A program made the position numbers. From the NCBI RefSeq assembly GCF_000026545.1, contig NC_011601.1: a stretch of DNA of 64,000 bases, one strand, 5' to 3'. Source of the stretch: Escherichia coli O127:H6 str. E2348/69 (GTDB taxonomy: Bacteria > Pseudomonadota > Gammaproteobacteria > Enterobacterales > Enterobacteriaceae). This document shows, piece after piece, positions 44,801 to 47,800 of the stretch (position 1 is the first letter of the stretch; each line of letters opens with the position of its first letter).

Positions 44801-47800
44801 GCTTCCTTTCGCATCGAGAAACGAGATTAACGCCTCGCCGGTCCCCAGTTCCTGGATTGCCTTTTCGGTATCAAACGCCGGATTGGCCCGCATGGTTTGC
44901 GCCGCAGCTTTTACTGCTTTCTGATCTTTGGGCGTAAAAGCCCGCAAAGCGTGTTGAACGCGATTACCGAGCTGGCCGAGCACATTATCCGGAATATCAG
45001 ACGGGTTTTGCGAAACGAACCAGACGCCCACGCCTTTTGAGCGAATAAGCCTTATCACCTGCTCAATCTTATCCAGCAGTACCTGCGGTGCGTCATTAAA
45101 CAGCAGATGCGCCTCGTCGAAGAAAAACACAAGTTTTGGTTTCTCCAGATCGCCCGCTTCTGGCAATTGTTCATACAACTCTGAAAGCATCCACAGCAGG
45201 CTGGCGGCGTACAGTTTAGGCATCTGATAAAGCTTTTCGGCGCTGAGGATATTGATAACGCCTTTACCGTTAGCATCGTTGCGCATCCAGTCTTTGATAT
45301 CCAGCATCGGCTCGCCAAAGAAATGCGCCGCACCTTGTTGCTCCAGCGACAGTAATCCGCGCTGGATGGCACCAACCGATGCGCTACTGATATTTCCGTA
45401 CTGATTCTGGAAGGATTTGGCGTTATCGCCGATGTACTGGGTAATCGCCCGCAGATCTTTAAAGTCGAGCAGTAACAGCCCCTGATCGTCAGCAATACGG
45501 AAGATGATATCCAGCACGCCAGATTGCACATCGTTGAGATTCAGCAGTCGCGCCAGCAACAGCGGGCCCAGATCCGAAACCGTCGCCCGCACCGGATGGC
45601 CTTTCTCGCCAAAGATATCCCACACCACCACCGGATTGGCATGCGGTTGCCAGTCGTTGACGCCGATATTTTTCAGTCTTGCGAGCAGTTTTTCCGACGC
45701 CTTTCCTGACTGCGCGATGCCGGTCAGATCGCCTTTCACATCGGCCATAAACACCGGAACACCGATTTCCGACAATGACTCTGCCAGTTTTTGCAGCGTG
45801 ACAGTTTTACCCGTCCCCGTTGCGCCAGTAATCAGCCCGTGACGGTTAGCCATTCCCGGCAGTAAAAACAGTTCTGTGTCCGGCGTGCGGGCAATTAACA
45901 GGGGTTCGCTCATGAGATTTCCTCCAGTTTCCTGCCTGGAGTATAGGCAACGGCTGCGCACTCTTCACCGCTAAATTCAGCAGATTGCGAGATGCCTTCC
46001 AAAGAGATTTAAGTGCCGGGCGACAGGCACCCGGCAAAGGGATCAGAAATCGGCTTTCAGAACCACGCGATAACGCGCCTTACCGTCGCGCACATGCTGG
46101 ATGGCGTCGTTAATTTTCGACATCGGGAACAGTTCGGTAGTCGGCGCAACCTTGCTGCGGGCGGCAAAGCGCATCAGCTTACGCAACTCATAAGGTGTAC
46201 CGGTAGCAGAGCCAGAGACACTGCGATCGCCCGCAATCAGCGTAAAGGCCGGAACCGGCAACGGCGTGAGAACCGCACCGACGGTGTGGAAATTACCGCC
46301 ATACGTCAGCGCCTCAAAATAAGGCTGCCAGTCGAGGCTGACGTTGACGGTGTTGATAATGAGATCAAACTGCCCCGCCAGTGCTTTCAGTGCCTGTGGA
46401 TCGCGGCTATTCACCACTTTATCGGCACCCATCACCAGCACTTCCTGCTCTTTCGCCGGATTAGAACTAAAGGCTGTCACCTCGCATCCCATTGCGTGCA
46501 GAAGTTTTATAGCTATATGCCCCAGCCCGCCAATACCAATTACCCCAACGCGGCTGGTGGCAGTGATATGGTGCATCAACAGCGGTTTAAAGACCGTGAT
46601 ACCGCCGCACAACAGCGGTCCGGCAGATTCAATGTCGATATTTTCTGGCAGTGGAATCACCCATTGCCAGTCCGCACGCAACTTCTCGGCAAAGCCACCG
46701 CGATTCATAATCGTCGGCACCGCACCTTGCTCGCAGTTGATCTGATTACCGCTAATACAGGCATCGCAATGCCCGCAGCTGCGTGCCGTCCAGCCAATCC
46801 CGACACGCTGACCGACCTGCAAACCTTTATCCTGCGCGGCACTCCCGAGCGCCACTACGCGACCAATCACCTCATGCCCGGCAACCAGTGGATATTGTGA
46901 AAATCCCCATTCGTTATCGATCATTGACAGATCGGAATGACAGATCCCGCAGTAATCCACCTGCACTTCAACATCTTGTGGCTTCAGTTCACCGGGATCG
47001 TACTCATAAACTTCCAGTTCGCCGCCCGCTTCTTTTGCGGCATAGCTTTTTATCATCGACATTTTTTGGTCCTTCTCTGGTGTGGTCTGGGAAGTGTAGA
47101 GCATGGCAGGGCGGGGTGCCTGGAGTGTGACAAAGGTTACACATCGCGGTATGCAATGCTGAAAATTTCAGCACTTAGCGAGGTGCGAGCAAGCTGGCGC
47201 TTGCATGGTGGCGTGCGACAGGTATAATCCACAACGTTTTCCGCATACCTCTTCAGTGCCGAAGTGGCGAAATCGGTAGACGCAGTTGATTCAAAATCAA
47301 CCGTAGAAATACGTGCCGGTTCGAGTCCGGCCTTCGGCACCAAGTCACTAAATTTCTTACAATACAATAAGTTAGGAAATAAAATCTATCTCTTTTGCCT
47401 GTAAGAAATGCTCTGTTATGTCCCTTGAAAAAGCCGCTGTGGTTGATAGTGGTAATTGGGATGTTAACTCATAGCGGCGTGTAGTTCCAAGCGTCAAACA
47501 CGTACTGACTCAACTTGAAAGCTATGACGTAGCCACCGTCTCTAAACAATCCCAAAAACTTTTAGTGAAGCGCATTTTAGCCCGATGCCCCCGTTCTGTC
47601 GCCGTCGCGAGACGCCGCAGGGGATAAACAGGTTTATGGTGGTCACGGTACTTGCAGACCATATGCAAGCTCTGCCAGCGGTTCGGCCTCGCTCCCCTTG
47701 GGTACATGGTCATCCTGATAAGCCTCACTAACTGACATAACTGTGATGTAGTCGCCAGAGGCTCCGCTTGTTGTCTTACCACCAACGGGGCTTATGACTT

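Follow-up and report, generated by a model that had tools for sequence, protein, structure and literature searches.

What does a gap of 129 bp between two genes of one Escherichia coli strain represent, when another strain carries a cluster of five genes at the same place? The gap in question (45914-46042) separates yjgR from ahr (yjgB) in a 64,000-nucleotide stretch of E. coli O127:H6 str. E2348/69, which is referred to in full as the window, while the annotation of K-12 MG1655 gives the order yjgR-idnR-idnT-idnO-idnD-idnK-ahr-leuX and thus places the L-idonate (idn, or GntII) cluster between the two genes. An earlier note on this DNA had put the genes about 130 bp apart and had given the K-12 order (both correctly), and had further described a spacer holding only a hairpin and an accessory idn insertion missing from this strain. 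Comparison with K-12 and with related enteric bacteria shows that the ahr-yjgR site occurs in two alternative forms (haplotypes), an empty one in E2348/69 and an idn-bearing one in K-12, each of which is also found in Citrobacter. The absence of idn from E2348/69 is in itself a common and already documented accessory-gene state.

Two forms of the ahr-yjgR site

A 3-kb piece of the window (44300-47300) was compared with the E. coli E2348/69 sequence NZ_CP059840.2 and is 100% identical to it. The RefSeq annotation of E2348/69 shows yjgR and ahr as direct neighbours with no gene annotated between them, in agreement with the list of open reading frames (ORFs), and the series of genes around the site in both sources is lptF and lptG (plus strand), yjgR (minus), ahr (minus) and leuX (plus). 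The features on which the comparison depends are the following.

44399..45913, minus strand: yjgR, HerA-like/DUF853 ATPase, left flank (ORF list and RefSeq; PF05872 on its homologues)
45914-46042: yjgR-ahr spacer, 129 bp
45914..45952, minus strand: yjgR leader, 39 bp, common to both haplotypes (K-12 homology reaches 45952)
45953..46005, minus strand: conserved middle segment of about 55 bp, found in the empty haplotype only (CTCTTTGGAAGGCATCTCGCAATCTGCTGAATTTAGCGGTGAAGAGTGCGCAGCC on the minus strand)
46014..46036, minus strand: hairpin, probable intrinsic terminator of ahr (fold and terminator scan)
46043..47062, minus strand: ahr (yjgB), NADPH-dependent aldehyde reductase, right flank (NCBIfam NF047908 and RefSeq)
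47258..47342, plus strand: leuX, tRNA-Leu(CAA), context marker (ARAGORN, Rfam RF00005 and annotation)

Homology between the window and K-12 spans yjgR up to 45952 (39 bp upstream of the yjgR start codon) and restarts exactly at the ahr stop codon (46043), so that 90 bp in the window (45953-46042) stand against 5,087 bp in K-12. Smith-Waterman alignment of these two segments on both strands returned only chance-level matches of 14-24 nt, which rules out the spacer as a decayed idn fragment; since the two segments share no homology, the difference is a replacement and no clean insertion or deletion. The empty site is accordingly not an intact target, as 90 bp of it are missing from the idn form. 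Within the K-12 segment (locus L001, 11559-16645), no integrase or transposase is annotated, only idnR, idnT, idnO, idnD and idnK, and a search for direct or inverted repeats within ±40 bp of both idn junctions found a longest shared word of 6 nt (shuffle mean 5.9). The idn genes of K-12 have a GC content of 43-51% as compared to 54-56% for ahr, yjgR and lptG, with a difference in the same direction in Citrobacter sp. FP75. In the K-12 idn form, idnK and ahr meet tail-to-tail, and a distance of 77 bp separates yjgR from idnR, which lies upstream of it on the same strand.

A junction formed through micro-homology was considered and set aside. In the empty form the 9-mer CTTTGCCGG immediately follows the ahr stop codon, and in the E. 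coli idn form it immediately precedes the shared 39 bp; however, 23 of 2,000 shuffles match as well, the Citrobacter idn forms show CTTTGATGG or CTTGCACTC at that place, and a second deletion of 77 bp would be needed, so the 9-mer is left unexplained.

The cluster carried by K-12 at this site was reportedly first described by Bausch and colleagues in 1998. The GntII cluster idnK-idnDOTR has also been described in later work (PMC5369007; PMC7924626). E2348/69 shares with K-12 the chromosomal site (from yjgR to ahr, near leuX) but lacks all five genes and carries the 129-bp spacer instead.

Both forms extend beyond E. coli, as seen in loci retrieved by a contig scan and by protein look-ups in selected enteric genomes. 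The empty form, with adjacent ahr and yjgR and a spacer of 129-139 bp, occurs in E. albertii, E. fergusonii, Citrobacter koseri and C. werkmanii, whose spacers align over their full length with that of the window and keep the order of hairpin, middle block and 39-bp leader. Citrobacter sp. FP75 and C. amalonaticus have the idn form, in which ahr-idnK-idnD-idnO-idnT-idnR-yjgR occupy the same site and the idnR-yjgR spacer is homologous to the K-12 junction. Between K-12 and FP75, the idn genes show 78-83% nucleotide identity (49-56% at third codon positions), a little below the values for ahr, yjgR and lptG (82-85% and 57-64%, respectively). As this divergence is at least equal to that of the flanks, idn is not a recent acquisition of the K-12 lineage, and the homology of the spacer across E. 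albertii, E. fergusonii, C. koseri and C. werkmanii makes the empty form equally old. Each form thus has a single origin and is either about as old as the split of Escherichia and Citrobacter or has crossed that boundary. Salmonella LT2 presumably has idn between yjgR and yjgB as well.

In Enterobacter cloacae DSM 26481 (L008, 8217-9863) and Enterobacter sp. Ag1 (L009, 8224-9930), other cargo lies between ahr and yjgR, a gene for a protein of 548-568 aa identified by eye as dihydroxyacetone-kinase-like. In E. fergusonii (L090-L092, 9610 onwards), synteny ends right past yjgR, beyond which an ArsP-like permease and unrelated genes are found and no lptG or lptF.

Absence of idn from E2348/69 and its frequency in E. 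coli

The absence of idn from the strain was established at two scales. Six K-12 proteins were searched against the window with tblastn, which recovered YjgR (98% amino acid identity to that of K-12), Ahr and otherwise distant paralogues (21-27% identity). The only matches of IdnD and IdnO in the window were paralogues of 26-27% identity (ahr itself in the case of IdnD), IdnR matched only a 21% paralogue at 22538-23434, and IdnT and IdnK had no match. For the whole genome, a chimeric query made of 2.5 kb of E2348/69-specific DNA, K-12 idnD and most of idnK was used in a sensitive blastn search; its top ranks were E2348/69 and two other O127:H6 genomes with one matching place each, and the single place on the E2348/69 chromosome was the strain-specific part of the query, with no idnD or idnK DNA detected. 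The cluster is therefore not present elsewhere in this chromosome, and its absence from the strain, as read earlier from the sequence of the site, is borne out. No K-12-like idn was found on plasmids of the collection.

Among 5,426 complete E. coli genomes, the full 129-bp empty spacer is present at 96-100% identity in 3,211 (59%), while 2,055 (38%) carry idn, which bears out the description of idn as accessory; in 1,973 of the 2,055 carriers the cluster is at least 99% identical to that of K-12. Strains with idn include ST1193 (B2) and O104:H4 (B1), and the empty form is found in E2348/69, ST131 (B2), O121 (B1) and O157:H7 (the spacer of an ST131 genome is 99.2% identical to that of E2348/69). 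Both forms consequently occur inside phylogroups B2 and B1, and idn occurs in A, B1 and B2. A third state, seen in about 147-150 genomes (about 3%), keeps the proximal empty-type spacer next to a truncated ahr; in B1-56 (L003, 7001-7333), for example, the loss of about 0.7 kb has removed the hairpin together with some two thirds of ahr, leaving an ahr pseudogene beside leuX. Loci with the YjgR variant named for Escherichia sp. TW14182 (L093-L095) likewise have no full-length ahr call next to yjgR.

The genome of MLI104K2 (NZ_CP116925.1), in which pieces of idnR and idnT lie between yjgR and ahr, at first resembled an intermediate and was discarded as a bad assembly marked by homopolymer runs. 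Long runs of G, C and A (L004, 6440-7260) are annotated there as a hypothetical protein and a LacI-family pseudogene, and the interval is almost certainly a long-read assembly artefact over an idn cluster.

Published PCR and genome comparisons have likewise found idn to be absent in several lineages (PMC5369007; PMC7924626). Nissle 1917 is without idnK-idnDOTR, which is present in K-12 and CFT073 (PMC7924626), and ST131 H30 and H22 are without idnK, which SE15 has (PMC5369007). Of pks-positive genomes, 83% have been reported to contain the cluster, as compared to about 31% of pks-negative ones, and ST95 clade IV to lack it (PMC8545132); idnD has been listed as exclusive to another enteropathogenic E. 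coli isolate and not to E2348/69 (PMC4464170). E2348/69 shares its genotype, without idnK-idnDOTR, with Nissle 1917, ST131 H30/H22 and ST95 clade IV; the papers on those lineages deal with presence or absence only, and the spacer, the replacement of 90 bp by 5.1 kb and the sharing with Citrobacter are not described in them.

Contents of the 129-bp spacer

The hairpin on which the earlier note had dwelt (gccgggcgacaggcacccggc, at 46015-46035) is real, though the spacer is not limited to it, as the middle block of about 55 bp and the 39-bp yjgR leader are conserved as well. On the minus strand, 46014-46036 folds into a GC-rich stem-loop with a 9-bp stem, which begins 6 nt past the ahr stop codon (-17.3 kcal/mol, z = -4.0; none of 200 shuffles folds as well). 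A terminator scan flags the hairpin, with a count for the region (1, as compared to a shuffle mean of 0.6) that is within the shuffle range; the tail CUUAAAUCUCUUUG satisfies the scan rule of 5 T in 8 bases, yet without an uninterrupted U run. A hairpin built on different stem sequences is found in this position in E. albertii, C. koseri and C. werkmanii, and idn haplotypes also have one just past the ahr stop codon (-14.9 kcal/mol in K-12, where it falls inside the 3' end of idnK, and -21.9 kcal/mol in FP75). The E2348/69 hairpin thus resembles intrinsic (Rho-independent) terminators in its GC-rich 9-bp stem-loop after the ahr stop codon and in a position conserved between species, but differs from them in bearing the tail UUAAAUCUCUUU in place of a U run. 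It is probably the intrinsic terminator of ahr, as predicted from these properties.

Neither K-12 nor the idn haplotypes of Citrobacter contain the block at 45953-46005. In E. fergusonii and E. albertii it matches that of E2348/69 at 95-98% identity, and in C. koseri and C. werkmanii at 78%. Its conservation and position make it a candidate for the upstream part of a yjgR promoter or operator. All loci from Escherichia and Citrobacter, whichever haplotype they carry, keep the leader GTTGCCTATACTCCAGGCAGGA, and Enterobacter keeps it in part. This leader contains a putative GGAGG ribosome-binding site and a -10-like hexamer TATACT (45945-45940, minus strand), 27-32 nt upstream of the yjgR ATG, and would be expected to serve both as promoter and as ribosome-binding site. 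By our own reading, the empty form has a weak -35-like GTGAAG 17 nt upstream of TATACT, which is lost in the idn form. An Rfam search of 45700-47500 found the leuX tRNA only and no known RNA family in the spacer. Taken together, the spacer most likely consists of an ahr terminator and a yjgR promoter, as an old and intact intergenic region; it is neither a deletion scar nor the untouched site of a recent insertion.

The ahr gene scores 553 bits against NCBIfam NF047908 (cut-off 470), and YjgR has 504 aa in E2348/69 as compared to 500 aa in other strains. Between lptG and yjgR, a GC-rich palindromic repeat (gtcccctcgcccctttggggagagggttagggtgaggggc, 44355-44401) abuts the 3' end of yjgR; a 36-bp stretch of it also matches a plasmid, and the 3-kb query containing it has a median of 5 matching places per genome.

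Origin of the two forms and its meaning

The flanks of the site are unusually variable. Among seven E. coli strains, yjgR shows 93.3-97.8% nucleotide identity and ahr 94.9-98.4%, as compared to 98.0-99.4% for lptG, which makes the two genes two to four times more diverse than lptG; the changes in yjgR are mostly synonymous (98% amino acid identity at 94.9% nucleotide identity). In idn-positive strains, mismatches per 150 bp fall abruptly from 5-22 in yjgR to 0-3 inside idn. The flanking genes cluster by genus, independently of the idn state, and are mosaic within E. coli (93-98% identity), so linked haplotype clades, with flanks sorting by idn status, were rejected.

The site also lies 216 bp plus one gene away from leuX, whose adjacent variable region is a known hotspot of integration and recombination in E. 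coli. The neighbourhood has in common with that region the diverse islands and integrases after leuX, seen in all strains examined (integrase genes adjoin it in K-12, ST1193, O157 and other strains). In contrast, ahr stands between leuX and the idn difference, which has no integrase, att-like repeats or tRNA-linked boundary and is therefore not a leuX-integrated island. Beyond leuX (47343-50000 onward), E2348/69 has a strain-specific island with genes for hypothetical proteins, a recombinase-family protein and a DEAD/DEAH helicase. The stretch 47500-50000 is 100% identical in only three O127:H6 genomes among the matches listed, and the cargo after leuX differs in every other strain examined.

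The explanation that we favour is that the ahr-yjgR site would have persisted in two old alternative forms, with E2348/69 holding the empty one and K-12 the idn one. In the empty form, the hairpin, the segment of about 55 bp and the 39-bp leader would allow transcription of ahr to end and that of yjgR to begin independently; in the idn form, the 5,087 bp of idnK and idnDOTR stand in place of the distal 90 bp, and yjgR may be partly co-transcribed with idnR. The cluster would most likely have been inserted once, long ago, in an ancestor of Escherichia and Citrobacter, and both forms would since have been exchanged by homologous recombination acting through the conserved genes on either side. 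The empty form is probably the older of the two, because the GC content of idn is below that of its neighbours in both genera, IdnR, IdnK and IdnT are recent paralogues of GntR, GntK and GntU within Enterobacterales (PMC4052901), the conserved block resembles a native yjgR upstream region, and Enterobacter holds other cargo at the same place. Lacking IdnD, IdnO, IdnT, IdnR and IdnK, E2348/69 is predicted from its sequence to be unable to use L-idonate via GntII. As a whole (an ancient idn insertion, recombination and a functional spacer), this explanation is considered to be reasonably well founded. It retains the insertion suggested in the earlier note as an ancient event, while a clean or recent insertion is contradicted by the replacement at the junctions, by the lack of repeats and mobility genes, and by the presence of idn in Citrobacter.

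Several observations weigh against parts of this explanation. Neither form can be converted to the other by one clean insertion or deletion. Both forms are present in both genera, so that an ancestral idn is conceivable, if less likely. The diversity of yjgR stays high up to the boundary, whereas spread mediated by the flanks predicts linked low diversity. As for the spacer, the U-poor tail of the hairpin has no U run, which makes the efficiency of termination uncertain, and a scan of 45700-46300 for the sigma-70 consensus found no promoter at threshold. Nissle 1917, although idn-negative, has been reported to grow on 5-ketogluconate (PMC7924626).

The opposite order of events, in which the common ancestor of Escherichia, Citrobacter and Salmonella would already have had idn at the ahr-yjgR site and E2348/69 would have inherited or imported an empty form made by deletion, accounts for the occurrence of idn at the same site and with the same junction in E. 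coli and two Citrobacter lineages at species-level divergence. It also agrees with the presence of the cluster in most Salmonella serovars (idnD being STM4484 in LT2) and its absence from Typhi, which has been interpreted as a loss (PMC6138749), and deletions do occur at the site, most of ahr being gone from about 147 E. coli genomes and from Escherichia sp. TW14182. Nevertheless, the 90 bp of the empty form, including the 55-bp block conserved across genera, are missing from every sampled idn form, so deletion of a K-12-like allele cannot yield the empty form; moreover, all sampled empty spacers share one architecture, so that such a loss would still amount to a single ancient deletion plus rearrangement and not to an event in the strain's own lineage. 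Together with the low GC content of idn, its recent gnt paralogy (PMC4052901) and the different Enterobacter cargo, these facts make an ancestral idn unlikely. A polymorphism shared between the genera, which would either predate the split of Escherichia and Citrobacter or have crossed it repeatedly, and which would have been kept by niche-dependent selection on L-idonate together with recombination via the hyperdiverse flanks, each form holding an intermediate frequency in E. coli, is a conceivable account that we put forward tentatively.

An insertion confined to the recent history of the K-12 lineage, with the spacer of E2348/69 as its untouched target, would suit the accessory nature, low GC content and low diversity of idn within E. 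coli, as well as the majority status of the empty spacer. It is highly improbable in view of the 90 bp missing from the idn form, the lack of boundary repeats and mobility genes, the spread of idn over phylogroups A, B1 and B2, and the Citrobacter clusters with their homologous junction and saturated synonymous divergence; a recent transfer from E. coli to Citrobacter is ruled out by the nucleotide identity of 78-83%. That the short spacer arose by assembly collapse or error deserves mention since MLI104K2 has an assembly artefact at exactly the same site, but the chance of it is negligible, as the same spacer (96-100% identity) recurs in 3,211 independent complete genomes, homologous spacers exist in four other species, and the absence of idn has been published for several lineages (PMC5369007; PMC7924626).

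For the biology of E2348/69, the direct consequence is small and adds one more strain to the published pattern of idn variation. The strain is predicted to lack GntII, a subsidiary pathway by which L-idonate and 5-ketogluconate serve as nutrients in the gut, while the use of gluconate via the separate GntI system is unaffected by the yjgR-ahr locus. In Salmonella, a connection of the GntII/idn pathway with intestinal fitness has been reported (PMC6138749), and idn has been suggested to aid colonisation by E. coli (PMC8545132). The sole new element is descriptive, namely that each form has conserved junctions of its own and that both are common to Citrobacter, with the unusual diversity of the adjoining yjgR as a modest addition. 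Without opening a new question, the site provides a tidy example of an apparently old operon-level polymorphism in a recombination-prone neighbourhood.

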